A stretch of DNA of 53,629 nucleotides from an uncultured Bacilli bacterium (GTDB taxonomy: Bacteria; Bacillota_I; Bacilli_A; RF39; UBA660). Under the pieces are notes generated by a model that saw only the letters and a program-made list of their open reading frames with translations, did no database searches and had not been told where the DNA came from. How positions within the stretch are numbered: the stretch's first letter is position 1; each line of letters opens with the position of its first letter. Position numbers and translations under genes: made by a program. The stretch is taken from the NCBI GenBank assembly GCA_949439935.1, contig CASRZA010000002.1, positions 1-53,629 of the forward strand, in the 5' to 3' direction. Below, piece after piece: positions 10,807 to 42,161 of this stretch.

Positions 10807-12669
10807 TTGACTATAGGAGGTTTATACCTATACGCCTTTTTGTCGCCTAAGTTAACCATACGTACGAATGGTAAATTCTTTATATATGACAATAATAATG
10901 ATTTAGTATACCAAGGATCGAGTTCAAGAGAATGGGTAAACCTCGAAGATATAAGCGACAACTTAAAAGACGCTACTGTAAGTGTCGAAGATAAAAATTT
11001 CTATAAACACCAAGGATTCGATTATATAAGAATAGCACATGCCGTTATTAACAATATAAAAAATAAAAGTCTAATCGAAGGTGCCTCGACCATAAGCCAA
11101 CAGTACGTTAAAAACATGTATCTTACTTTTGACAAAAAATGGTCTCGAAAGATCGAAGAAGCCTTTCTTACTTTAGAATTAGAAGTACATTATTCCAAAG
11201 AAGATATTCTCGAAGGCTATCTTAACACGATAGACTATGGACAAGGAAATTATGGCATCCAAAATGCTTCTAGATATTATTTTAATAAGGATGCCAAAGA
11301 TTTAACGCTCGAAGAAGCTTGCATGTTAGCAGGTATCCCGAGAAGCCCTGGGAACTATAATCCGGTCTCTAGTTATGAGCGAGCCGAAAAAAGAGCTAAA
11401 ATAGTAGCCGAAACGATGGTTAACAACGGATACATAACTTGGGATGATTATAATAATATGTATAAAGAGAAACTAGATATTTATGCAAAGAGAGACAAGA
11501 ATAATTTAGACACTCTTATGTATTATCAAGATGCTGTCATTTCAGAACTTCAAAATATCTCGAGCATACCAAATTCATTGATCGAAGCCGGAGGATTAAA
11601 AATATATACTGCCTTAGACTTAGAAAAACAGAAAGCATTAGAATCATCAGTAAAAAATAATATGCCAGACGACAATACTCAGGTAGCGGCTATCTATGTC
11701 GATCCAAAATCAGGAGCAGTAAACGCCTTAATCGGAGGAAAAAATTATAGTCAAAGTCAATTTAACCGCGTTACCCAATCAAAAAGACAAGTAGGTTCTA
11801 CTATAAAGCCGTTCCTGTACTATGCCGCCTTAAACAATGGACTAACTATGTCATCAACTTTTAGAAGTGAAGCTACCACCTTCAACCTTTCGAATAATAA
11901 CACATATACTCCTAGCAATTACAACAATATATACGGAGGAAAAATGATCACTATGGCCGCGGCACTTGCCTATTCTGACAATGTATATGCCGTCAAGACT
12001 CACTTATTCCTTGGCGAAGAGACGCTCGTCGATACTCTCAAAACCTTCGGATTAAAAGAAAAAACACAGCCAGTACCATCTCTTGCTCTAGGTGCAATAG
12101 AATTAAATATGTTAGATTATGCGACAGCATATGTAGCTCTGGCAAGTGGTGGATACTCAAAAGATATCCACTTGATCCGCCGAGTCGAAGACATGAACGG
12201 AAACTTATTATATGAATTTAAGGATAGAGATGAACTCGTTCTGAATTATAATAACGTATACATAATAAACGAAATGCTCACAAATGCCTATAATTCAAAT
12301 TTCATAGATTATAACAGTCCTACTGCAGTAAGCTTAAAAGGCAGACTAACTAAAAAGTATTCTTTAAAAACAGGTACGACAGACAACGACCATTGGGTTG
12401 TTGGATATAACCCAGACGCCCTCATGATGATATGGACTGGTGACGATCAAAATGCTCCTACTACGGGCTTTGCAAAAATCACCAAAAATATCTGGGCAGA
12501 TGCCATGGAAGAATGTTTAAAAGACGTAGAAGAAACCTGGTATGAAAAACCGACTAATATAGTAAGCATTCCGCTTCACCCCATCTCGGGAGACTTTGTA
12601 ACTAATGGGAAAAATTCACTGTTCTATTTTGTAAAAGGTACAGAGCCTTCCGTTTATATTACAGACTAA
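10807..12669 (+). CDS. Bifunctional class A penicillin-binding protein (glycosyltransferase + transpeptidase)
   Basis: GT51 motifs EDKNFYKHQGFD and GASTISQQ. Transpeptidase motifs STIKP (SxxK), YSDN (SxN) and KTGTT. The track start (TTG 10807) falls inside the predicted membrane anchor. The reading frame is open back to 10729, and an ATG at 10725 is one base out of frame across an A8 run (see findings). Confidence 0.9.
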   Translation: MTIGGLYLYAFLSPKLTIRTNGKFFIYDNNNDLVYQGSSSREWVNLEDISDNLKDATVSVEDKNFYKHQGFDYIRIAHAVINNIKNKSLIEGASTISQQYVKNMYLTFDKKWSRKIEEAFLTLELEVHYSKEDILEGYLNTIDYGQGNYGIQNASRYYFNKDAKDLTLEEACMLAGIPRSPGNYNPVSSYERAEKRAKIVAETMVNNGYITWDDYNNMYKEKLDIYAKRDKNNLDTLMYYQDAVISELQNISSIPNSLIEAGGLKIYTALDLEKQKALESSVKNNMPDDNTQVAAIYVDPKSGAVNALIGGKNYSQSQFNRVTQSKRQVGSTIKPFLYYAALNNGLTMSSTFRSEATTFNLSNNNTYTPSNYNNIYGGKMITMAAALAYSDNVYAVKTHLFLGEETLVDTLKTFGLKEKTQPVPSLALGAIELNMLDYATAYVALASGGYSKDIHLIRRVEDMNGNLLYEFKDRDELVLNYNNVYIINEMLTNAYNSNFIDYNSPTAVSLKGRLTKKYSLKTGTTDNDHWVVGYNPDALMMIWTGDDQNAPTTGFAKITKNIWADAMEECLKDVEETWYEKPTNIVSIPLHPISGDFVTNGKNSLFYFVKGTEPSVYITD

Positions 12670-12672
12670 AAA

Positions 12673-12704
12673 ACGTATCAATTTTTTACCGATACGTTTT
12701 TTTT
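12673..12704 (+). terminator. Intrinsic terminator after the PBP gene
   Basis: Stem ACGTATC (12673-12679) / GATACGT (12691-12697) followed by a T7 run. It overlaps the stop codon of the convergent HAD-like gene. Confidence 0.65.
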
Positions 12705-13186
12705 GGCCCTAAAACCATCACAGCCTCTTCGGCGATTTCCTGAGTTAGACCGCCATTATAATAATCTGTCTTTACCACAAAATCCAAAAAATCCTCATAA
12801 CCAGCAAATAATTCGTCGTCTAAAACTACAAATCTATCGACATCATGGTCTAAAATATAAGACTGAATCGCGACCGCTCTACCATATTCATTGCTGATAG
12901 AACCAACTATGGGAAGTCCGCTCCTTACCAAATATTCTTCCACTAAAGGATAATGACGCGACCTAACCTCTGCACTCATACAAACTATTTCTGCGCCTGT
13001 GGAAAAAGCTATACTTTTCAACAACTGAATTCTATCGAAATCATAATGAGTTACAGCCGATCTCATCAACATATCTAAAGACATCGAACTTCTTCTTCCA
13101 TAGAAAATCCTATCATCATTATTATCTCTAAAAGATTGAGTGCAATTTAATACTCCATCAAAATCTAAAAAAATTATCTTTTTCAT
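12686..13186 (-). CDS. HAD-superfamily phosphatase-like protein
   Basis: N-terminal HAD motif I, MKKIIFLDFDGVLN. ATG at 13186. Confidence 0.6.
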   Translation of the reverse strand: MKKIIFLDFDGVLNCTQSFRDNNDDRIFYGRRSSMSLDMLMRSAVTHYDFDRIQLLKSIAFSTGAEIVCMSAEVRSRHYPLVEEYLVRSGLPIVGSISNEYGRAVAIQSYILDHDVDRFVVLDDELFAGYEDFLDFVVKTDYYNGGLTQEIAEEAVMVLGPKKTYR

Positions 13187-13198
13187 ATAATGCCTCAC

Positions 13199-13243: not shown

Positions 13244-14434
13244 TCATTTCTTAATTTTAAGTATTATCTGATACATATCTTCGAAATCGTATTCCTCCAT
13301 CTCGACTTTGTATCCATTAGACTCGACAGACCTTACACTATCTCTAATCGTGTTGACTTGATCGCCGATACTTTTCTTAACGATTTCCCCTCCTGATATC
13401 TCTTGTGTCATGCTTGGACCGCCAAAAGGATTTATAGAAGGCTCCATCGAAGGAGCACTAGGAAGTGGACTTACGACGTCACCAAACATGTCGAAAGTCT
13501 CGATCGCTTCTTCTGTGTTTAACTTATTATCGCTTTCAAATACAGGTGGAACTCCCGGCATTGTTTCACCAAAATTCGTCGTCGTCGGCCCACTAAACGG
13601 ATTAAAGCTAGCAGGCGGAATCGTATCTTCTAAACCGATACTCAAATTTGGAGCGCTCGTCTCTAAATCCGTAGGTGGTTCTAAAGAGATGCCTAAGAAG
13701 TTTTTATTAGGCATTCCGTTCTGTCCCAAAACCGAATCTACGGACATATCTCCAACAGAATTTTCTTGTGTATTAGGTATCATTTCTCTTCCTCCGTGTT
13801 CTCCACTTGAATTGTCCTCTGCACCCGCTGTACTTCCCTGCAACAGTTTTTTAATCTCCATATCTAATTGTTTGACTGTCAATCTTTCCTTTATGATCCT
13901 GTTCAACATGTTCTTTTGATTGTCGGGATTAGAAAGCTGTAACAAACTTCGGGCATGTCTTTCACTAATCTGTTCATTCAAAAGAGCATTTTGAACTTCA
14001 TCACAGAGATTCAAAAGTCTCATTTTATTAGCTATAGTCGACTGAGAAACACCCAATTTTTGAGCCAACTCCTCTTGAGTCAAATATCCTCTATCTAAAA
14101 GATTCCTATAACTTTGAGCCTCTTCGATGCTCGACAGATTCTTCCTTTGTACATTTTCTATCAAGGCTACTTCTGCACTTTCGTTATCAGTCATTTCGCG
14201 TACGATCGCAGGAACCTTCTTTAAACCTGCCATACAGGAGGCTTTATAACGCCTTTCTCCTGCGATTATCTCGTACTTATTACCAACTTTTCTCAAAACT
14301 AGAGGCTGTATTACCCCGTGTACTTTGATAGAATCCGACAATTCTTGTAACGCTTTCTCATCGAAAGTAAGTCGAGGTTGAAATCTATTAGGTATTATAT
14401 CTTCGATAAATATTTCTTGAACTTGCTCATTCAT
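13244..14434 (-). CDS. noc: ParB/Noc-family protein, Noc-type, with a long low-complexity insertion
   Basis: ParB N-domain motifs IIPNRFQPR and IIAGERRYKA, plus ENVQRKNL. HTH region GVSQSTIANKMRLLNL...ISERHARSLL and C-terminus VNTIRDSV...EEYDFEDMYQIILKIKK resemble B. subtilis Noc as I recall it. The gene lies directly downstream of rsmG, which is the noc position. Confidence 0.75.
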   Translation of the reverse strand: MNEQVQEIFIEDIIPNRFQPRLTFDEKALQELSDSIKVHGVIQPLVLRKVGNKYEIIAGERRYKASCMAGLKKVPAIVREMTDNESAEVALIENVQRKNLSSIEEAQSYRNLLDRGYLTQEELAQKLGVSQSTIANKMRLLNLCDEVQNALLNEQISERHARSLLQLSNPDNQKNMLNRIIKERLTVKQLDMEIKKLLQGSTAGAEDNSSGEHGGREMIPNTQENSVGDMSVDSVLGQNGMPNKNFLGISLEPPTDLETSAPNLSIGLEDTIPPASFNPFSGPTTTNFGETMPGVPPVFESDNKLNTEEAIETFDMFGDVVSPLPSAPSMEPSINPFGGPSMTQEISGGEIVKKSIGDQVNTIRDSVRSVESNGYKVEMEEYDFEDMYQIILKIKK

Positions 14435-14489
14435 CGCGCGTAGCCCCTTTACTTATTCTTTTTATCCATAATACAAGTTTACTTGATTA

Positions 14490-15197
14490 TCACTTTTTTT
14501 GCAACGGTTTTTTATTTATTTTATCAAATACCCTAGGAAACTCTTCATCGGTTTTACACTTTTTATTTACAAAAACAAATGTTCTAGTGGAACCCTCATA
14601 AGGAAGTGTGCACTCTTCCACGCGCTCGAGAGTTCCTCCTAGAATTTTTATTGCATACTCTCCTTGTTCTAAATCATCGCTTAATTTTCCTTTATAAGGC
14701 AAGAAGTATCCGCCCACTTTGACAAAAGGAATGGAGAGTTCAGAGAGAACAGGCATAGCCGTCACAGCTCGCGACGTCACTACATCGAACGATTCTCTCT
14801 TAGTTAAAATATATTTTTCTGCCCTATCGTTTATGACAGTAAAATCTAAATCTAAGACGTTTTTAAGATCCTCTAAAAATTTTGTTTTTTTTCCATTAGA
14901 ATCCAACACGGTAAGTTCCAAACTGGGAAAGCAAATTTTTAAAGGGACACCAGGAAACCCTGCTCCACTTCCTATATCTAATAAAGACTTTCCTTCAAAA
15001 TCAAAATACTTCGCACCCAAAAGAGAATCATAAAAATGCTTTAAATAGACCTCTTCTAAAGTTCGAATAGCAGTCAAATTTGTATGCTGATTATATTCCA
15101 AGAGAAAATTTGCATACTCCGAAAATTTAACCAGCTGCTCTTCTGAAACCTCAACTCCGATTTTGGATAATTCGAAAATAAAATCTTGTTCACTCAT
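14490..15197 (-). CDS. rsmG: 16S rRNA (guanine527-N7)-methyltransferase
   Basis: SAM motif LDIGSGAGFPGVPLK. Conserved mnmG-rsmG synteny. Confidence 0.9.
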   Translation of the reverse strand: MSEQDFIFELSKIGVEVSEEQLVKFSEYANFLLEYNQHTNLTAIRTLEEVYLKHFYDSLLGAKYFDFEGKSLLDIGSGAGFPGVPLKICFPSLELTVLDSNGKKTKFLEDLKNVLDLDFTVINDRAEKYILTKRESFDVVTSRAVTAMPVLSELSIPFVKVGGYFLPYKGKLSDDLEQGEYAIKILGGTLERVEECTLPYEGSTRTFVFVNKKCKTDEEFPRVFDKINKKPLQKK

Positions 15198-17062
15198 CTC
15201 TTCCCATACTCCTTCTTCAAATAGACTGCCAAAATTTCTATATCTGCTGGATTAACCCCACTTATTCTACTGGCTTGGGCGATAGTCACTGGTCTTACTG
15301 CTTCTAATTTTTGTCTTGCTTCACTCGCTAGATTTTTAACCTTCGCATAGTCGATATCATACGGAATTTGTTTATTTTCTAACTTCAAAAGTTTCTCCGC
15401 GTCTTTATAAGTTTTTACTATGTATCCCTCATATTTTGTTTCGATTATAACTTCTTCTAAAACGTCCTTATCAAAACTTTCTAATTCTGGATATATTTGT
15501 TTTAATATCGAAGAATCTATCTCTGGTCTTTTTATTAAGTCATATAGAGAACAAGAAGAGGCATTACGTAAATGTTTTTCTAATAAATCTTTCTTAATCT
15601 TTGTTACTCTGATCAATTCATTTAATCTCGACATGCTCGCCCTTTTTTCATCTAATCTTCGTTTTTGATCTTCATCGATAGTACCTGCTTGATAACCGTA
15701 ATCTCTAAGTCTCAAATCGGCATTATCATGTCTCAAAATCAACCTGTACTCCGCTCTTGAAGTAAGCATTCTGTATGGCTCTATTGTACCCTTAGTCACT
15801 AGGTCATCTATTAAAACACCTATATACGACTCATTCCTTTTTAATACTAATGGCTCTATTCCTTTGAGCTTTTTCGATGCGTTTATGCCTGCGATGATTC
15901 CTTGACCTGCGGCTTCTTCATATCCACTTGTCCCATTTATTTGTCCAGCTGTAAAGAGATTTTCGATATGTTTAGATTCGAGAGACGGCTTAATCTGCAA
16001 CGGATCGATTGCATCGTATTCTATAGCGTACGCATATTCCAAAATCTTTGCTTTCTCTAACCCTTCTAAACTGTGTACCATTTCATCTTGAACATCTATA
16101 GGCATAGAAGTAGAAAAACCTTGAAGATATAATGCATCATAATACTGGCTTTCGATATCCATACTTTGCGGTTCTAAGAAGAGTATGTGTTTTTCCTTAT
16201 CGGCAAATTTAACGATTTTATCTTCTATACTAGGGCAATATCTCGGTCCAACACCACTCACATATCCGCCGTACATGCTAGACTTAGATAGATTATCTCT
16301 AATAATCTGATGAGTCTTTTCGTTAGTATATATGAGATAACATTTCTCTTGTTTTGAAACGTCATAATCGCTTTCACTATCGAAACTGAAAGAATAGTGA
16401 ACGTCGTCTCCAAGTTCTTCCTTCATCTTCGAATAGTCCACAGTTTTTGCGTCTATCCTCGGAGGCGTTCCCGTTTTAAGACGTATGATTTTAAAGCCTA
16501 ACTCTCTAAGTCTATCTGATAAATTGTCGGATCTCTTCTCGCCGTGTGGTCCTTCAGGTATCTTCTCACTCCCACGCAATATTTCACTTTTTAAATAAGT
16601 CCCCGTCGTCAGTATCAAAGAATCACATTCTATCATCATCCCAGAAGAAAGTACTACACCTTTTACTTTCTTAGCATTGTCATCTATTACGATGTCCTCG
16701 ACTATTCCTTCTAATATAGAAAGATTTTTCTGATTCAAAAGAGCCTCCTGCATGTTTTTGGGGTACGTCTCTTTATCGGCCTGAGCTCGAAGGCATCTAA
16801 CCGCAGGTCCTTTGCTGCCATTTAACATTTTCATCTGCAATAAAGATTTGTCAGCAATTTTCCCCATCAATCCTCCCAAAGCATCGACTTCTCTTACGAT
16901 TACTCCCTTAGATGTTCCACCGATCGAAGGATTACAAGGCATATCTCCTATATTCTTTATATTACCAGTTATCAGAATAGTGTTATGTCCAATTTTGCTA
17001 GTGGCATAACAAGCTTCAATTCCGGCATGCCCACCACCGACTACTATCACTTCATATTTCAT
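15194..17062 (-). CDS. mnmG: tRNA uridine 5-carboxymethylaminomethyl modification enzyme
   Basis: FAD-binding VIVVGGGHAGIEA and full-length GidA homology. ATG at 17062 (MKYEVIVVGGG). Confidence 0.95.
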   Translation of the reverse strand: MKYEVIVVGGGHAGIEACYATSKIGHNTILITGNIKNIGDMPCNPSIGGTSKGVIVREVDALGGLMGKIADKSLLQMKMLNGSKGPAVRCLRAQADKETYPKNMQEALLNQKNLSILEGIVEDIVIDDNAKKVKGVVLSSGMMIECDSLILTTGTYLKSEILRGSEKIPEGPHGEKRSDNLSDRLRELGFKIIRLKTGTPPRIDAKTVDYSKMKEELGDDVHYSFSFDSESDYDVSKQEKCYLIYTNEKTHQIIRDNLSKSSMYGGYVSGVGPRYCPSIEDKIVKFADKEKHILFLEPQSMDIESQYYDALYLQGFSTSMPIDVQDEMVHSLEGLEKAKILEYAYAIEYDAIDPLQIKPSLESKHIENLFTAGQINGTSGYEEAAGQGIIAGINASKKLKGIEPLVLKRNESYIGVLIDDLVTKGTIEPYRMLTSRAEYRLILRHDNADLRLRDYGYQAGTIDEDQKRRLDEKRASMSRLNELIRVTKIKKDLLEKHLRNASSCSLYDLIKRPEIDSSILKQIYPELESFDKDVLEEVIIETKYEGYIVKTYKDAEKLLKLENKQIPYDIDYAKVKNLASEARQKLEAVRPVTIAQASRISGVNPADIEILAVYLKKEYGKR

Positions 17063-18573: not shown

Positions 18574-19008
18574 CTACAAGTCTTTTTTTCTAGATAGAGT
18601 TATTTTTAAATTTTTAATTTCATCAAATACTTTTTTTATCTCTGCCATTACTTTCTCTTTTTCATCTTCTCCAACACCGCAAAGAATATCATTTACAGAT
18701 TTTTCATAATCTCGTTTATTTATTTTGTTTAATTCATTCCAATTTACATTTTTAAAATATGCTGCTATGTCCTCGTTAAAAGTTAACTTCCCTTGCGACA
18801 TTAAAACAGCTATCACAGGATACCCGACATATCCTTGCCAATAAGTAGAATTGTCGTTTGAATAATAAACGTCATCCTTCCACTTAATCGAGTATTCTTT
18901 CTCCCCATTGCTCGACTTTACCTTTGCATGATCATCAAAAATTTCTACTCTACTATCTATAATTGCCGTATAAGCCTCGGGTATTTTTTCGATAGGTGGC
19001 ATCTTCAT
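18574..19008 (-). CDS. Hypothetical protein (144 aa)
   Basis: Intact ORF with its own terminator. No recognisable motif. Confidence 0.5.
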   Translation of the reverse strand: MKMPPIEKIPEAYTAIIDSRVEIFDDHAKVKSSNGEKEYSIKWKDDVYYSNDNSTYWQGYVGYPVIAVLMSQGKLTFNEDIAAYFKNVNWNELNKINKRDYEKSVNDILCGVGEDEKEKVMAEIKKVFDEIKNLKITLSRKKDL

Positions 19009-24698: not shown

Positions 24699-24812
24699 AT
24701 TAGAATCTCCAAAAAATGGAAAAAAATACCAGTTTTTTCCAATCGCCGACAAATTTTGACAAATTTCGACAGAGAATTATGGTATAAGAATGCGCACAGG
24801 GAGGTGAAGAAG

Positions 24813-25310
24813 ATGGATTATATGGATAGTTATAAGATAAACACAGATACTTTGGCAATAGTACCTATAAACAGAAAGAAATCTAAAGTCTATGAAAACC
24901 AAAATATAATAATAGTAAAAAAGAATGCTAACAAGATCATCGAAGAAAATTGTGAATATTTTGGAAGCTCATATGCAGGACGAAAAAAAGGAACCATGGA
25001 TCTTATAGGCGTTACACATAAGGCACCGATTCTAATAGAAGATTCTCAAAATATAATATTTTTTCCTACGAGCAGTCCGAGATTAAACGATTGCAACTGG
25101 ATATCGCTTAATAATGTAGATAGCTTTTTGCCACATGATGACGACAGTATTATCACGTTTCAAAATAACCTATCGATCCAAGTGAACGTATCTAATAAAG
25201 TTATCAACAATCAGATTTTGAGAGCTACTAGATTAGAATCTGTCGCATCGAAGAGAAAAGATAAGTTTTATAAGGAAATAAATCGACAAAAAAACACAAA
25301 AAACATTTAA
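24813..25310 (+). CDS. comK: ComK-family competence transcription factor
   Basis: YFGSSYAGRKKGT, HKAPILI and IIFFPTSSP...CNWIS match ComK hallmark motifs. ATG at 24813 follows GGGAGGTG. Confidence 0.8.
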   Translation: MDYMDSYKINTDTLAIVPINRKKSKVYENQNIIIVKKNANKIIEENCEYFGSSYAGRKKGTMDLIGVTHKAPILIEDSQNIIFFPTSSPRLNDCNWISLNNVDSFLPHDDDSIITFQNNLSIQVNVSNKVINNQILRATRLESVASKRKDKFYKEINRQKNTKNI

Positions 25311-31056: not shown

Positions 31057-31072
31057 TGTTCCACGTGAAACA
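31057..31072. promoter_or_regulatory. parS site 0
   Basis: TGTTCCACGTGAAACA, identical to the B. subtilis parS consensus. Confidence 0.85.
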
Positions 31073-31090
31073 TTATACGTTGCCACAAAA

Positions 31091-31106
31091 TATTTCCCGG
31101 GAAATA
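31091..31106. promoter_or_regulatory. Noc-binding site (NBS) 0
   Basis: TATTTCCCGGGAAATA inside a 24-bp perfect palindrome (31087-31110). Its centre is 34 bp from the parS 0 centre. Confidence 0.8.
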
Positions 31107-31230
31107 TTTTTAACGCGAATTCACTATTAGCTTTTTTCAGATCATGAATCTCTCTAAAAATGAGTATCAAATGTGAGTAATACACTATTCATTCTTATAT
31201 AAGGAGTATATAATTGCCAACTTATCCACA

Positions 31231-31246
31231 TGTTCCACGTGGAACA
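31231..31246. promoter_or_regulatory. parS site 1
   Basis: TGTTCCACGTGGAACA (perfect palindrome), immediately preceded by DnaA box TTATCCACA (31222-31230). Confidence 0.85.
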
Positions 31247-31264
31247 TTGTAATATACCACAAAA

Positions 31265-31280
31265 TATTTCCCGGGAAATA
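31265..31280. promoter_or_regulatory. NBS 1
   Basis: TATTTCCCGGGAAATA, centre 34 bp from the parS 1 centre. Confidence 0.8.
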
Positions 31281-31417
31281 ATATTAACGCAATTTGCCAT
31301 CGGTTTATTCATTATTAACCCTTTCAGACTGTGAATCACTCCAAAAATGGGTAGCATATGTAGCTAATCGACTGTTAATTTTTATATAAGACGTGTATAA
31401 TTACTAACCTATCCACA

Positions 31418-31433
31418 TGTTCCACGTGGAACA
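31418..31433. promoter_or_regulatory. parS site 2
   Basis: TGTTCCACGTGGAACA, preceded by CTATCCACA (31409-31417). Confidence 0.85.
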
Positions 31434-31451
31434 TTGCAAGATGTCGCAAAA

Positions 31452-31467
31452 TATTTCCCGGGAAATA
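31452..31467. promoter_or_regulatory. NBS 2
   Basis: TATTTCCCGGGAAATA, centre 34 bp from the parS 2 centre. Confidence 0.8.
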
Positions 31468-31558
31468 ATATTAACGCAATTTGCCATCGGTTTATTTCAT
31501 TATTAACCCTTTCAGACTGTGAATCACTCCAAAATATGTGACATAAGTGGATAATTTA

Positions 31559-31587
31559 TTGTTAATTCTTATAAAAGTGTGTATAAT
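31559..31587 (+). promoter_or_regulatory. Sigma-A-like promoter inside a repeat unit
   Basis: TTGTTA (31559-31564), 17-bp spacer, TATAAT (31582-31587). It is oriented to transcribe into the DnaA box, parS 3 and NBS 3. Confidence 0.5.
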
Positions 31588-31603
31588 TACCAACTTGTCC
31601 ACA

Positions 31604-31619
31604 TGTTCCACGTGGAACA
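31604..31619. promoter_or_regulatory. parS site 3
   Basis: TGTTCCACGTGGAACA, preceded by TTGTCCACA (31595-31603). Confidence 0.85.
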
Positions 31620-31637
31620 TTGTAATCTGTCACAAAA

Positions 31638-31653
31638 TATTTCCCGGGAAATA
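31638..31653. promoter_or_regulatory. NBS 3
   Basis: TATTTCCCGGGAAATA, centre 34 bp from the parS 3 centre. Confidence 0.8.
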
Positions 31654-31744
31654 ATATTAACGCGATTTGCTATCGGTTTATTTTATTATTAACCCTTTCA
31701 GACTGTGAATCACTCCAAAATATGTGACATAGGTGGATAATATA

Positions 31745-31773
31745 TTGTTAATTCTTATAAAAGTGTGTATAAT
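31745..31773 (+). promoter_or_regulatory. Sigma-A-like promoter inside a repeat unit
   Basis: TTGTTA (31745-31750), 17-bp spacer, TATAAT (31768-31773). Degenerate versions occur in the units ending at 31230, 31417 and 31892. Confidence 0.5.
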
Positions 31774-31789
31774 TACCAACTTATCCACA

Positions 31790-31805
31790 TGTTCCACGTG
31801 GAACA
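31790..31805. promoter_or_regulatory. parS site 4 (unit lacking an NBS)
   Basis: TGTTCCACGTGGAACA, preceded by a perfect TTATCCACA (31781-31789). The NBS-containing segment is deleted in this unit. Confidence 0.85.
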
Positions 31806-31892
31806 TTGTAATCTGTCACAAAATATGTAGCATAAGTGGATAATATACTATTAATTCTTATAAAAGTGTGTATAACTACTAACTTATTCACA

Positions 31893-31908
31893 TGTTTCAC
31901 GTGGAACA
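31893..31908. promoter_or_regulatory. parS site 5
   Basis: TGTTTCACGTGGAACA, the reverse complement of the B. subtilis consensus. Preceded by TTATTCACA (31884-31892). Confidence 0.85.
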
Positions 31909-31926
31909 TTGCAAGATGTCGCAAAA

Positions 31927-31942
31927 TATTTCCCGGGAAATA
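31927..31942. promoter_or_regulatory. NBS 5
   Basis: TATTTCCCGGGAAATA, centre 34 bp from the parS 5 centre. Confidence 0.8.
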
Positions 31943-32079
31943 ATTTTAACGCGATTTACCATCGGTTTATTTCATTATTAAGCCTATAAGATTACAAAAA
32001 ACTTAAAAAAATATTAAACTAAGTTTATATTGCTGTGTTTTTTACATATAGAATGTCCTCAATTTATAACTTACTCATA

Positions 32080-32095
32080 TGTTCCACGTGGAACA
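32080..32095. promoter_or_regulatory. parS site 6
   Basis: TGTTCCACGTGGAACA in otherwise diverged flanks. Confidence 0.85.
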
Positions 32096-32113
32096 TTGTA
32101 TGATGCCATAAAA

Positions 32114-32129
32114 TATTTCCCGGGAAATA
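32114..32129. promoter_or_regulatory. NBS 6
   Basis: TATTTCCCGGGAAATA at the centre of a 30-bp perfect palindrome (32107-32136). Its centre is 34 bp from the parS 6 centre. Confidence 0.8.
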
Positions 32130-32178
32130 TTTTATGCATGGCTTAAATTACTGATTAGCATCTTCTTAACCTTTTTGA

Positions 32179-32194
32179 TGTTCCACGTGGAACA
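32179..32194. promoter_or_regulatory. parS site 7
   Basis: TGTTCCACGTGGAACA; the palindrome extends to 20 bp (32177-32196). It lies about 50 bp upstream of the ffs promoter. Confidence 0.85.
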
Positions 32195-32275: not shown

Positions 32276-32281
32276 TATGAT

Positions 32282-32357
32282 GCACAGCGAACGATTGTCG
32301 AACCTGGTCAGAATTGGAAAATAGCAGCCATAAGACATAGTCCGTGTGTGCTTTTTT
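32282..32357 (+). ncRNA. ffs: Small (4.5S-type) signal recognition particle RNA
   Basis: CCUGGUCAGAAUUGGAAAAUAGCAGCCAUAAG aligns with E. coli 4.5S domain IV, CCAGGUCAGGUCCGGAAGGAAGCAGCCAAGG (GGAA tetraloop, conserved AGCAGCC). 5' GCACA pairs with 3' UGUGC, followed by a U8 run. The locus (ffs-tadA-dnaX) fits Firmicute synteny. Confidence 0.6.
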
Positions 32358-32369
32358 TTGGAGGAAGAA

Positions 32370-38380: not shown

Positions 38381-41300
38381 ATGAAATTCATTACAGACAA
38401 ATTTGAATACAAACAAGACAGCAATGTATATGGGTTAACCCGAGAACTCGACGCCTTATATATTCAAAATTACTTTCAAAATAATGATGAAAACGTTCTC
38501 GTTCTAGCTAGCACATTATACGAAGCGAATAACTTTTATAAAATCTTACAGACATATAGTGACGATGTTCTGTTTTTTCCAATGGACGATTTTTTGACAT
38601 CTGTAGCCATAGCGGTATCTCCAGATCTTAAGATAAAACGCTTAGAAACGCTCGAAAAAATCAAAAACGCCAAGAAAAGCCACATCGTGGTCACTTCCCT
38701 GATGGGATACTTAAAATTCCTACCCAACAAAGACGAAGACCAAAGTATTTTGATCGACCCCTCCCCCCAAATTATTTCCCGGGAAATAATTTTAGAAAAA
38801 TTAGAAGAATTTGGATATAAAAGAGACTCACTTGTCACAGTGACAGGAGAATATGCAGTACGGGGATACATCATAGATATATTTCCCGTAGATGCCAACA
38901 AGCCGGTACGTATAGAATTTTTTGATGACGAAATAGAATCTATCAAAGAATTTGACGAGGAGACACAATTGACAATAAAAACTTTAGAAAGTGTCGAGTT
39001 GAAAAGATTCAACGAAAGCATCGCAGGAGATCCTAGTTCGTTATTAGACTATCTAGACAACCAAACGCTCTTCTTAATAGATGAAAACCAAATAAAAAAT
39101 TCATATACGACTCTTCAAAATGATATTTTTGAGTACAACACTAGCAAAAGCATCGATCCAAACACGAAATATATGTTTGACTACGAACATATGCTACCTA
39201 AAAAAACGTTCAAAATTGATACCATAAACGCTTATACAGACAAAAATTCCATAGTCTATAGTTCGAAAATCATCGAGAACTTCAATTCAAATCTTCAAGA
39301 CTTAAAAGCATTTTGTTTAAAGGAAGTAAAAACTAAAACGATCATATTTGCTCTAGAGAACTCTAATCAGATTCGAACTATCCAAGAACTTCTTCCTGAA
39401 ACTTATATGACAAATATAGATAGTCTGATAGAAAATAAAATTAACATTGTCGAGAAAAAATTATTCAAAGGGTTTATCTTTGAGAATTATATCATTATTA
39501 CACCTAACGATATCGACAAAACGGTGAAAAAAGAAATAAAGTATAGAAATTCTATCAAAATAGGAAGAAAAGTAAAGGCATTCAGCGACTTGACACCAGG
39601 CGATTATATAGTTCATGAGGCCCACGGAATAGGTATCTACAAAGGATTAAAGACACTTACAAACGGAGGGTATACTCGAGACTACATAGAGTTGGAGTAT
39701 CAAGGAACTGACAAAGTATATGTTCCAGTTGACGGCATTGACAAACTTTACAAATACGCTTCGAATCCTGGAACAACTATTAAGCTTAGTAAATTAAATA
39801 GTGCCGCATGGGCAAAAAAGAAGAACGAAACTCGAAGTAAAATTCGCGATATTTCGAGTGAATTGATAGAACTATACTCTAGTCGAAACAAAGTTCAAGG
39901 TGTAGCATACAAAGATTTCGAAGAAGAAATAAAATTCGCTCTCGATTTCCCTTACACTCTGACAGACGATCAAGAAAAAACGATAAAAGAAATAGATTTA
40001 GATTTAAAAAACTCAGCTCCGATGGATCGGCTTCTATGTGGCGACGTCGGTTATGGAAAAACAGAGGTAGCATTCCGTGCCATGTTTAAAACCGTCATGA
40101 ACGCTCATCAAGTCGCATATCTTTGTCCGACAACCATACTTTCGAAACAACAATATGCAAGTGCCCTAGAGAGATTTAAAGACTTTCCAATAAAAATAGC
40201 CCTACTAAATAGATATGTCTCACAAAAAAATGTAACTCGTATTCTAAAAGAATTAAAAGATGGTCAAATAGATATAATAATAGGAACTCACAAATTGCTA
40301 AACGACAAAATAGAGTATAAAAAACTAGGACTTCTTGTAATAGATGAAGAACAAAGATTTGGTGTAACTCATAAAGAAAAGATTAAGAAAATCAAAAATG
40401 ACGTAAACGTCTTGACTCTTTCTGCTACACCGATTCCAAGAACCTTAAAAATGGCGATGAGTGGCCTACGAAGCTTATCCGTATTAGATACGCCTCCAAT
40501 TAACAGATATCCGATACAAACCTATGTTATTGAGGAAAATAAACTCATCATGAGAGACGCGATCTACAAAGAGCTTACGAGAAACGGACAGATATTTATC
40601 TTAATTAACTCCATCAATGAACTAGAAAAGTTCAAAAGCAATCTACAAAAGCTTGTCCCAGAAGCCCGCATAGTCTGTGGACATGGACAAATGTCTTCAG
40701 ATGAACTTAGTAGCATTATGGAAGCCTTCATAAATGGAGATTACGATATATTAGTCTGTACTACGATAATCGAAACAGGTATCGATATACCGAACGTAAA
40801 CACTATAATAATCAAGGACTCGGACAAATTTGGACTAAGCCAACTATACCAAATAAGAGGCCGAGTAGGTCGAAGCGACAAGATCGCCTATGCATATTTA
40901 ATGTACAATCCTGCCAAAATTCTAACAGAAACAGCGATGCGAAGACTAGATTCGATCAAAGAATTCACAGAACTCGGAAGTGGATATAAAATTGCCATGA
41001 GAGATTTGGCAATCCGCGGAGCAGGAGATTTTCTTGGAAGCGAGCAAGCAGGCTTTATCGACGCAGTAGGACTCGATCTCTATACAAAAATGGTCGACGA
41101 AGAAGTAAAAAAATTATCCGGTAAAGCTATCGAAGATTCAGAAAAAACCGTTCCTTCGATAAACGCTAGTACCTACATCCCTGACGAATATGTCGAAGAT
41201 GAAAATATCAAAATTGAAATCCATAAACTTATTAATACCATCAACGACAAATATGACTTTGAAAACGTCAAGAATGAACTAGAAGATCGCTTCGGAAAAG

Positions 41301-41636: not shown

Positions 41637-42161
41637 TTGGTGATAATTTTGACACAAAATAGTAACATACGAAGAATAGATGAATTAGGTAGAATAGTCA
41701 TACCGAAAGATATAAGAAAAAAATTACATATCAAAGACAACGAACCTCTCGAGATTTACATCGATAATGGCGACATAAGAATCAGAAAATATTCTTCACT
41801 TCCTGATATAATCGAGTATATAAGAAACCTTATAGATATAGGTAATAGAATAGCTGGTTATTCATATATTATTACAGACAGAGAGAAAATAATCGCTTCG
41901 ACAAACAAAGAATTTGAAACTATACCATTAGAAAAACCGTTAGAAGATTTGGTTCTCTCTTGCCATGAAGACAGAAACATAGCGATAGACTACAGAATAG
42001 CAAACATACCAGTAAAAGGATATGCAAATATTGTTCCAATAATAGTCGATAATGACCGTTCAGGACTCATAATAGAATACAACACATCTGGAGAAATACG
42101 AAATCAAGAAGTTATAAAAATTTTTAAAAACTTGATAGAAACTAGTCTGAACAATTATTGA
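41637..42161 (+). CDS. spoVT: Stage V sporulation protein T (AbrB-type N-domain + GAF-like domain)
   Basis: IRRIDELGRIVIPKDIRKKLHIKDNEPLEIY is the SpoVT/AbrB swapped-hairpin motif. The position after mfd is conserved. Start codon uncertain (TTG 41637, GTG 41640 or TTG 41649). Confidence 0.8.
   Translation: MVIILTQNSNIRRIDELGRIVIPKDIRKKLHIKDNEPLEIYIDNGDIRIRKYSSLPDIIEYIRNLIDIGNRIAGYSYIITDREKIIASTNKEFETIPLEKPLEDLVLSCHEDRNIAIDYRIANIPVKGYANIVPIIVDNDRSGLIIEYNTSGEIRNQEVIKIFKNLIETSLNNY

Follow-up and report, generated by a model that had tools for sequence, protein, structure and literature searches.

The stretch analysed here, a 53.6-kb window comprising positions 1 to 53,629 of contig CASRZA010000002.1 (assembly GCA_949439935.1) from an uncultured Bacilli bacterium, carries on its minus strand a noc-like coding sequence (13244..14434) that, in the open reading frame (ORF) list and its translation, runs from an ATG start through 396 amino acids to a stop. 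Its product represents a variant of Noc that is widespread in uncultured gut Bacilli, a clear orthologue without the membrane anchor that is the hallmark of the family. A ribosome-binding site, AAAGGGG, can be read 9 nt 5′ of the ATG (14444..14450, minus strand). Six codons 5′ of the ATG lies an in-frame TAA (plus-strand 14453-14455), with a second stop beyond it (the translation reads ...G-stop-KE-stop-VKGLRA-MNEQ), and none of the six intervening codons is a start codon, so a longer N-terminus is not encodable. Directly upstream of noc is its ancestral neighbour rsmG (gidB; 14490..15197, minus strand; Pfam GidB, E 1.3e-50), which ends 55 nt from the noc ATG. The gene sits in the origin region, in the order yidC-jag-two small ORFs-mnmE-mnmG-rsmG-noc-HAD_SAK_2 and then a convergent class A penicillin-binding protein (PBP) gene, with dnaA-dnaN-comK-recF-gyrB-gyrA on the other side. 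The HAD_SAK_2 protein is phosphatase-like and is encoded directly 3′ of noc on the same strand (12686..13198, minus); the class A PBP (10807..12669) is encoded on the opposite strand to noc and is therefore convergent, not co-directional. Among ORFs of at least 60 aa we found no soj or spo0J within the window, and the window holds no second ParB. The initial annotation of this locus, made from the DNA letters alone, had listed a HAD-like protein and a PBP downstream and no soj or spo0J; all are present or absent as it said, and the strand of the PBP is the one detail to be added. We rejected the HAD gene as a functional partner of noc, as it lies downstream of noc in 0 of 65 assessable related loci: it occurs in this species only, and the related loci L001 and L084 have the PBP directly 3′ of noc.

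The predicted protein has the domains of a ParB-family clamp. Residues 3-96 (14147..14428, minus strand) form the N-terminal CTPase domain (Pfam PF02195 ParB_N, E 2.4e-35), in which the CTPase motifs GVIQP (residues 40-44), GERRYKAS (59-66) and IENVQRK (92-98) are intact. All three signatures, GERR, ENxQR and GxxQP, are found in 171 of 201 clade members. The ParB motif PNRFQPR occupies residues 15-21, in agreement with the earlier statement that the protein starts about 14 residues before this motif with a TAA six codons upstream. Residues 98-198 (13841..14143, minus strand) form the helix-turn-helix DNA-binding domain (Pfam PF17762 HTH_ParB, E 4.7e-32), which aligns to the crystallised Noc chains 7NG0, 7NFU and 7OL9, and residues 356-396 (13247..13369, minus strand) form a Noc-type C-terminal dimerisation domain of one helix and two strands, predicted by AlphaFold2 at a predicted local distance difference test score (pLDDT) of ~90. 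With a 38-sequence alignment as input, AlphaFold2 was confident for residues 1-202 and 356-396.

By descent the window protein is a Noc orthologue, and among the ParB paralogues it is Noc and not Spo0J, as judged from tree, structure matches, C-terminal domain, specificity residues and rsmG synteny. In a neighbour-joining tree of 43 sequences and 199 columns, the clade was monophyletic with Bacillaceae and Geobacillus Noc in 98 of 100 bootstraps, and Spo0J neighbours from the same clade joined Bacillus subtilis Spo0J in 82 of 100. Against proteins of solved structure the window protein scored 198, 198 and 189 bits with Noc (7NG0, 7NFU and 7OL9) versus 172 bits with Spo0J (6SDK); reciprocally, the clade's Spo0J scored 220 bits with 6SDK and ~162 with Noc. 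The last 37 amino acids are 43% identical (16/37) to the very end of the B. subtilis Noc sequence (E 5e-4), and the C-terminal domain gave no match to the clade's Spo0J. The NCBIfam Noc model, TIGR04285, scores the clade's Noc-like proteins at 274-300 bits (relatives, 274-291) versus 232-244 for the clade's Spo0J. Compared with canonical Noc of Bacillales (B. subtilis YyaA/Noc; Geobacillus thermoleovorans Noc, PDB 7NFU/7NG0/7OL9/6Y93), identity is ~49% over the N-terminal and DNA-binding domains, and the two share the CTP-binding motifs, the recognition helix QSTIANK...ERHAR, the Noc-type C-terminal domain, rsmG upstream and the Noc-binding site (NBS) ATTTCCCGGGAAAT. The window protein differs in having neither helix alpha1 nor alpha2, in an Asn at the position of K184, in an acidic 153-aa linker, in the absence of soj-spo0J after the gene and in scoring below the NCBIfam cut-off. 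With the Spo0J/ParB proteins of its own lineage (e.g. L078 11533-12432) and with B. subtilis Spo0J (6SDK) it shares the three-domain ParB layout and ~44% core identity; unlike the window protein, these Spo0J carry the ParA-binding peptide RRALGRGLEELF, have R-x-x-G/S at the specificity positions and a different C-terminal domain, and are ~295 aa long. In the clade's true Spo0J this N-terminal peptide (ALGRGLEELF) fits the ParA-binding motif (L/F/I)G(K/R)G(L/F/I), which is missing from the window protein, whose sequence starts MNEQVQEIF.

Synteny with rsmG points the same way. In B. subtilis the order is rsmG-noc-soj-spo0J. Directly upstream of noc, rsmG was found in 58 of 74 assessable related loci, and a ParA/Soj gene stands between noc and Spo0J (noc-soj-spo0J) in 16 of the 65 loci with enough flank. 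A second ParB, a canonical Spo0J of ~295 aa, lies within 10 kb in 18 of 80 related genome loci, 17 of these 18 being ~0.86 kb downstream on the same strand, and its presence beside noc argues that the window protein is the Noc paralogue. Judging from these loci, part of the clade retains the ancestral rsmG-noc-soj-spo0J order, and 28 of 65 related loci have a convergent PBP after noc, as in the window's branch. The description of the gene as not followed by soj-spo0J thus holds for the window, but many relatives keep soj-spo0J after the same protein. It could still be argued that the window protein is itself the chromosome-partition ParB and reads the parS sites of an array near the origin (described below), given that the window holds no other ParB and that the eight parS sites there need a reader. 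Tree, hidden Markov model (HMM) scores and C-terminal domain all side with Noc, however; the protein has Gln in place of R173 and Arg in place of G201 and has no LG[KR]GL ParA-binding peptide, and its counterparts coexist with canonical Spo0J in 18 of 80 relatives. We regard this alternative as very improbable and already refuted by the sequence. Its assignment as Noc-type and not Spo0J-type in the initial annotation was thus well founded (tree, 98/100; 198 vs 172 bits; C-terminal domain; specificity residues QKNR).

The most conspicuous difference from canonical Noc is at the N-terminus. PNRFQPR is preceded by 14 residues in the window protein and by 14-29 across the clade, versus 36-51 in Bacillaceae Noc (n=120), and all 120 of the Bacillaceae proteins retrieved begin MKH[PS]FSRFFGLGEKE, in agreement with the PDB chains. 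Residues 1-15 of Noc have been described as extremely conserved, and every homologue considered was predicted to have an amphipathic helix (Adams 2015, PMC4331003). Later work assigned membrane anchoring to alpha1 and showed that alpha2 keeps alpha1 autoinhibited until CTP binding frees it (Jalal 2021, PMC8429893). Comparison with these sequences shows that the predicted window protein lacks the whole canonical N-terminal extension, that is, both the membrane-targeting amphipathic helix alpha1 and the autoinhibitory alpha2. Residue 3 of the window protein aligns to residue 2 of the crystallised NΔ26 construct of Noc, making it close to a natural NΔ26. The engineered truncations NocNΔ10 and NocNΔ26 (Adams 2015; Jalal 2021) fail to inhibit division in B. 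subtilis, whereas the natural protein, which starts approximately where NΔ26 does, is under purifying selection clade-wide and has the extra linker. NocNΔ10 still binds CTP and closes as a clamp (PMC8429893). The earlier claim that the canonical anchor is unusable here is borne out by the 14 residues before PNRFQPR, by the stops upstream and by the 14-29 residues seen in every relative. For the direction of the change, loss in the clade versus gain in Bacillales, the tree offers no informative outgroup for this character. Among the papers searched, none describes a helix-less or long-linker Noc.

This architecture is not peculiar to one genome. Three independent samples contain the identical 396-aa protein, on 7 contigs in all. 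Each of its 120 closest database proteins starts 14-19 residues before PNRFQPR; those of full length measure 325-492 aa and finish in the same C-terminal domain. A genome scan in which each species was represented once yielded 80 loci, every one of them from metagenome-assembled genomes (MAGs) of uncultured gut 'Bacilli', 'Tenericutes', 'Mycoplasma sp.' or 'Erysipelotrichaceae'; all 80 have their conserved start 14-21 residues ahead of the motif and a linker of 83-401 aa. We also ran a profile search against 1.84 billion cluster representatives (50% identity) and took the best 150 matches, which are 242-686 aa long (median 463; the two shortest, of 242 and 263 aa, look like fragments). They start 14-29 aa before the motif (median 16), not one of the 150 has a canonical MKHxFSRFFG-like N-terminus, and their assessable linkers are net acidic. 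The short N-terminus is common to 200 of 200 sequenced relatives and to 150 of 150 best representatives. The window's whole subclade falls within three of these 150, which argues that the family is large and old. At the level of predicted proteins, these surveys show that the helix-less architecture with a long acidic linker is clade-wide, spanning at least 150 clusters at 50% identity. As the source is a metagenome contig, a short N-terminus or an insertion could in principle reflect annotation, a frameshift, misassembly or a decaying gene. The recurrence of the identical protein in independent samples, the N-domain and C-terminal domain lying in one frame, and an architecture retained by 200 relatives and 150 representatives, in which the catalytic and DNA-binding residues do not vary, already refute this explanation, to which we assign practically no weight. 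Neither a grouping with Spo0J nor a frameshift or assembly artefact, both named in advance as fatal to the initial annotation, was found in the tree and conservation data.

The DNA-binding and C-terminal domains are separated by an acidic linker of 153 aa, predicted to be disordered (residues 203-355; 13370..13828, minus strand; AlphaFold2 and composition), with a net charge of -18. In the AlphaFold2 model built from the 38-sequence alignment, pLDDT falls below ~55 and no secondary structure is predicted, and the composition is rich in S, P, G, E, N and T. A low-complexity stretch had earlier been placed at residues 200-345; the model agrees that it is disordered, but the extent given was slightly short, as disorder runs to ~355. 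In the 176 clade proteins in which it could be assessed, the linker is always acidic, 54-389 aa long, with a mean charge of -0.15 per residue; when the cluster representatives are taken in, the range is 54-439 aa and all are net acidic. Drawn with the same boundaries, the linker of canonical Noc is ~8 residues with a charge of +5 (about 8-20 aa, basic). Linkers of 300-400 aa in three related loci (L029, L059 and L020) are built of internal tandem peptide repeats, e.g. NPNPFGINPQPIQEPAQSINTLPEQPVQS or VNNVQPNFTAQSVNEVQAEPVNM, suggesting that the linker grows by repeat expansion.

Conservation of the linker is poor across the window's subclade save for four islands (alignment A1), which hold Phe-centred short linear motifs of a docking-like kind. 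Motif 1 (residues 242-265, PNKNFLGISLEPPTDLETSAPNLS; 13640..13711, minus strand) has the consensus NKNIFGxxxEPPTDLExSAPNL, appears in the subclade as the island PNKN(I/F)(F/L)G...EPPTDLExSAPNL and is homologous to PNKFFNFLEDEAANM in distant clade members. Motif 2 (residues 272-282, IPPASFNPFSG; 13589..13621, minus strand) forms the island IPPxSFNPF, in which conservation in A1 is 90% or higher at F277, N278, P279 and F280. Motif 3 (residues 308-320, EEAIETFDMFGDV; 13475..13513, minus strand) forms the island ExIETFDMFGD, with E312, F314, F317 and G318 at least 90% conserved; it is the most amphipathic stretch of the linker (hydrophobic moment 0.46-0.52), yet acidic, with a net charge of -2 to -4. 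Motif 4 (residues 333-339, SINPFGG; 13418..13438, minus strand), a second NPF-type motif, was found in close relatives only (alignment A1 and regular-expression scan). In distant members the first island reads PNKFFNFLEDEAANM or one of the variants GKFFNFGDEDE, PPKFI(D/N)YG and GRFFDFSPGE, and a further motif, NPGFMDIDxIExxAQDIN, is present. A regular-expression scan found none of the linker motifs in other ORFs of the window. The suggestion in the initial annotation that the disordered insertion may supply a different partner interface gains support from the presence of conserved short motifs in the sequence of a fast-evolving linker.

One reading of these motifs is that the membrane-targeting sequence has been relocated into the linker, such that the motif [KR]-F-F-[NGD]-[FY]-x-E-acidic (GKFFNFGDEDE, PNKFFNFLEDE) is the counterpart of SRFFGLGEKE and would bind the membrane directly. 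When linkers were scored with an ungapped position-specific scoring matrix (PSSM) of canonical residues 6-15, the top site in many clade members was this motif; scores reach 24 vs 9 ± 3 for shuffles (p <= 0.01 in 14 of 176 sequences; p <= 0.05 in 21 of 60 genome loci), and the version in L003 has a hydrophobic moment of 0.54-0.59 vs 0.43-0.56 for the B. subtilis anchor. Those p-values overstate the support, however, since related sequences are non-independent, and the PSSM support comes from distant members only: the window's version, NKNFLGISLE, scores 8.7 (p = 0.65). An HMM of the canonical N-terminal 16 residues gave no score above shuffles, AlphaFold2 predicts no helix at the motif, and the motif is set in acidic sequence, whereas the canonical anchor has a net charge of 0 to +2 and flanking positive charge. 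Direct membrane binding through a relocated anchor is therefore, in our estimate, distinctly improbable.

We then considered what DNA the protein would read. At the four specificity positions defined by Jalal 2020 (173/179/184/201) the window protein has Q131, K137, N142 and R159, that is, QKNR. The pattern Q-K-x-R is found in about 95% of the 201 clade proteins (77% have QKNR); 118 of 120 canonical Noc have QKKR, with which the window protein agrees at three of the four positions, and the clade's Spo0J are R-x-x-G/S. Published work found that A1 of NBS is read by Q173, and C6 by R201, given a Lys at 179 and/or 184, that a single Lys suffices, and that extant ParB show no variation at R173 and G201 (Jalal 2020, PMC7383237). 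An Asn at 184 is thus compatible with NBS specificity. The recognition-helix strings are GQSTIANK...ERHAR for B. subtilis Noc and SRPHIANH...GHGR for B. subtilis Spo0J, as checked against PDB chains 7OL9 and 6SDK, and match those that the initial annotation had given for each. Between gyrA and the signal recognition particle (SRP) RNA gene lies a tandem array of probable binding sites (31057..32194), with 8 parS sites of the TGTTCCACGTGGAACA type and 6 exact NBS (ATTTCCCGGGAAAT). Tandem Repeats Finder (TRF) gave a period of 186 bp with 3.4 copies, plus degenerate units; each NBS lies 19 bp downstream of a parS-type palindrome, and each unit holds a TATAAT-like GTGTATAATTACCAAC box. An isolated exact NBS lies away from the array, inside the mfd coding sequence (38774..38787). 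In all, the exact 14-mer ATTTCCCGGGAAAT occurs 7 times in the window vs 0 in 100 shuffles, and 13 more exact copies were found across 12 related loci. Within the window the NBS sites cluster beside oriC and are not scattered. Allowing up to 2 mismatches, we saw no parS within 10 kb of noc across the 80 related genome loci. With Q173, R201 and one permissive Lys in its sequence, the window protein fits as the candidate reader of the NBS half of the array, as proposed earlier.

Taken together, the protein is the Noc orthologue of an uncultured gut Bacilli lineage and would probably act as a CTP-dependent clamp at NBS, with any contact to the envelope or a partner made through the linker. Like its orthologues, it would load at NBS and slide as a CTP-dependent clamp. 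Tethering of DNA to the membrane by an N-terminal helix would be impossible for it, and coupling to the envelope, the divisome, the replisome or other Noc molecules would be supplied by the linker motifs, which each clamp dimer would display on two flexible arms. As both the motifs and the linker are acidic and poorly suited to anionic lipid, the motifs most likely dock a protein partner.

Noc of this type could also do without envelope contact and act purely on DNA. S. aureus Noc has been reported to tune replication initiation. The window protein might likewise be a replication-initiation tuner, or else an organiser or marker of the origin by way of the NBS array beside oriC, or it might form a condensate, the acidic linker with Phe 'stickers' at intervals either setting the material properties or curbing non-specific binding to DNA. 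The absent N-terminal anchor, a uniformly acidic linker rich in FG/NPF-type aromatic motifs and the concentration of NBS sites beside oriC within the window would fit such a role, as would the reported phase separation of Noc (PMC9606368). Yet the conservation of the motifs (FNPF, ETFDMFGD, PNKFFNFLEDEAANM) exceeds what a generic sticker-and-spacer sequence needs, and the NBS distribution that can be seen covers 53.6 kb of the genome only. We consider a purely DNA-based role unlikely.

Several points weigh against a Noc clamp that makes its contacts through the linker. The score of the window protein with TIGR04285, 299.7 bits gathered in two stretches split by the linker, does not reach the cut-off of 315, and position 184 is Asn, not Lys or Arg. 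NBS binding, CTP clamping and any partner are inferred for every member of the clade. Distant members carry linker motifs unlike those of the window's subclade, so a single function may not be common to both, and AlphaFold2 predicts no structure at the motifs of the window protein. In B. subtilis, NocNΔ10 stays on the nucleoid and loses both its peripheral foci and division inhibition, and no protein partner of Noc has ever been found (Adams 2015, PMC4331003), so a partner-based mechanism is without precedent in the family. A Spo0J of the window's own genome was also sought: when 5.8 billion proteins were searched with a profile built on 10 Spo0J of the clade, the hits came from other lineages only, and the 80 Spo0J loci of a metagenome scan include none from the source samples Ga0081461 or Ga0080702. 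It is the 8 parS sites that argue for a Spo0J in this genome, since eight well-kept palindromes imply that a ParB reader exists and Q173/R201 make the window protein an unlikely one.

The preferred reading, a Noc clamp with its contacts in the linker, bears on how the family is viewed. The anchor helix is essential in B. subtilis, and the idea that nucleoid occlusion works by pulling DNA to the membrane, one modelled on Noc, rests on it. In a helix-less Noc family, either the membrane link is made another way or the conserved function of Noc is one without membrane contact, and either changes that view. The clade probably couples chromosome and division differently from textbook Bacillus. A more far-reaching version, which we put forward tentatively and think possible but not the likelier outcome, is that the whole gut Bacilli lineage (at least 150 clusters) has rebuilt nucleoid occlusion, with linker motifs docking an envelope, divisome or replisome partner, or with a relocated internal anchor; here, the protein would be loaded beside ParB on the composite parS-NBS array next to oriC and would couple origin segregation with division control. 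The four short motifs and four near-invariant Phe provide a concrete handle for finding a Noc partner. Scores below the NCBI Noc cut-off mean that under that rule proteins of the clade would be named only as generic ParB-family, which hides the family.

Some further features of the window and its relatives were recorded. Immediately after the array comes a small bacterial SRP RNA (32276-32360; Rfam RF00169, 48 bits), which overlaps the GTG annotated as the start of a tadA-like ORF (32346). A ComK-family gene lies between dnaN and recF (24756-25310), and has the same position in the related 1-Mb contig L084. Between jag and mnmE are two small conserved genes, one at 18574-19008 in the window and the other a small ORF upstream of it (L081 5110-5370), with the Pfam assignments UCP014422 and DUF5661. 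The window encodes a SpoVT/AbrB-type regulator at 41637-42161, and L084 encodes SpoIIR (15891-16415). Together, these suggest that the lineage may sporulate, though public records label related MAGs 'Tenericutes' or 'Mycoplasma'. Among ParB proteins of Spo0J length, two from metagenome loci (297 aa; L100 1499-2389 and L101 35-925) have Q-M-R-T and Q-T-R-T at the specificity positions, and many of the clade's Spo0J have Ser at position 201, where Thr or Ser has been associated with dual parS/NBS specificity (Jalal 2020, PMC7383237).

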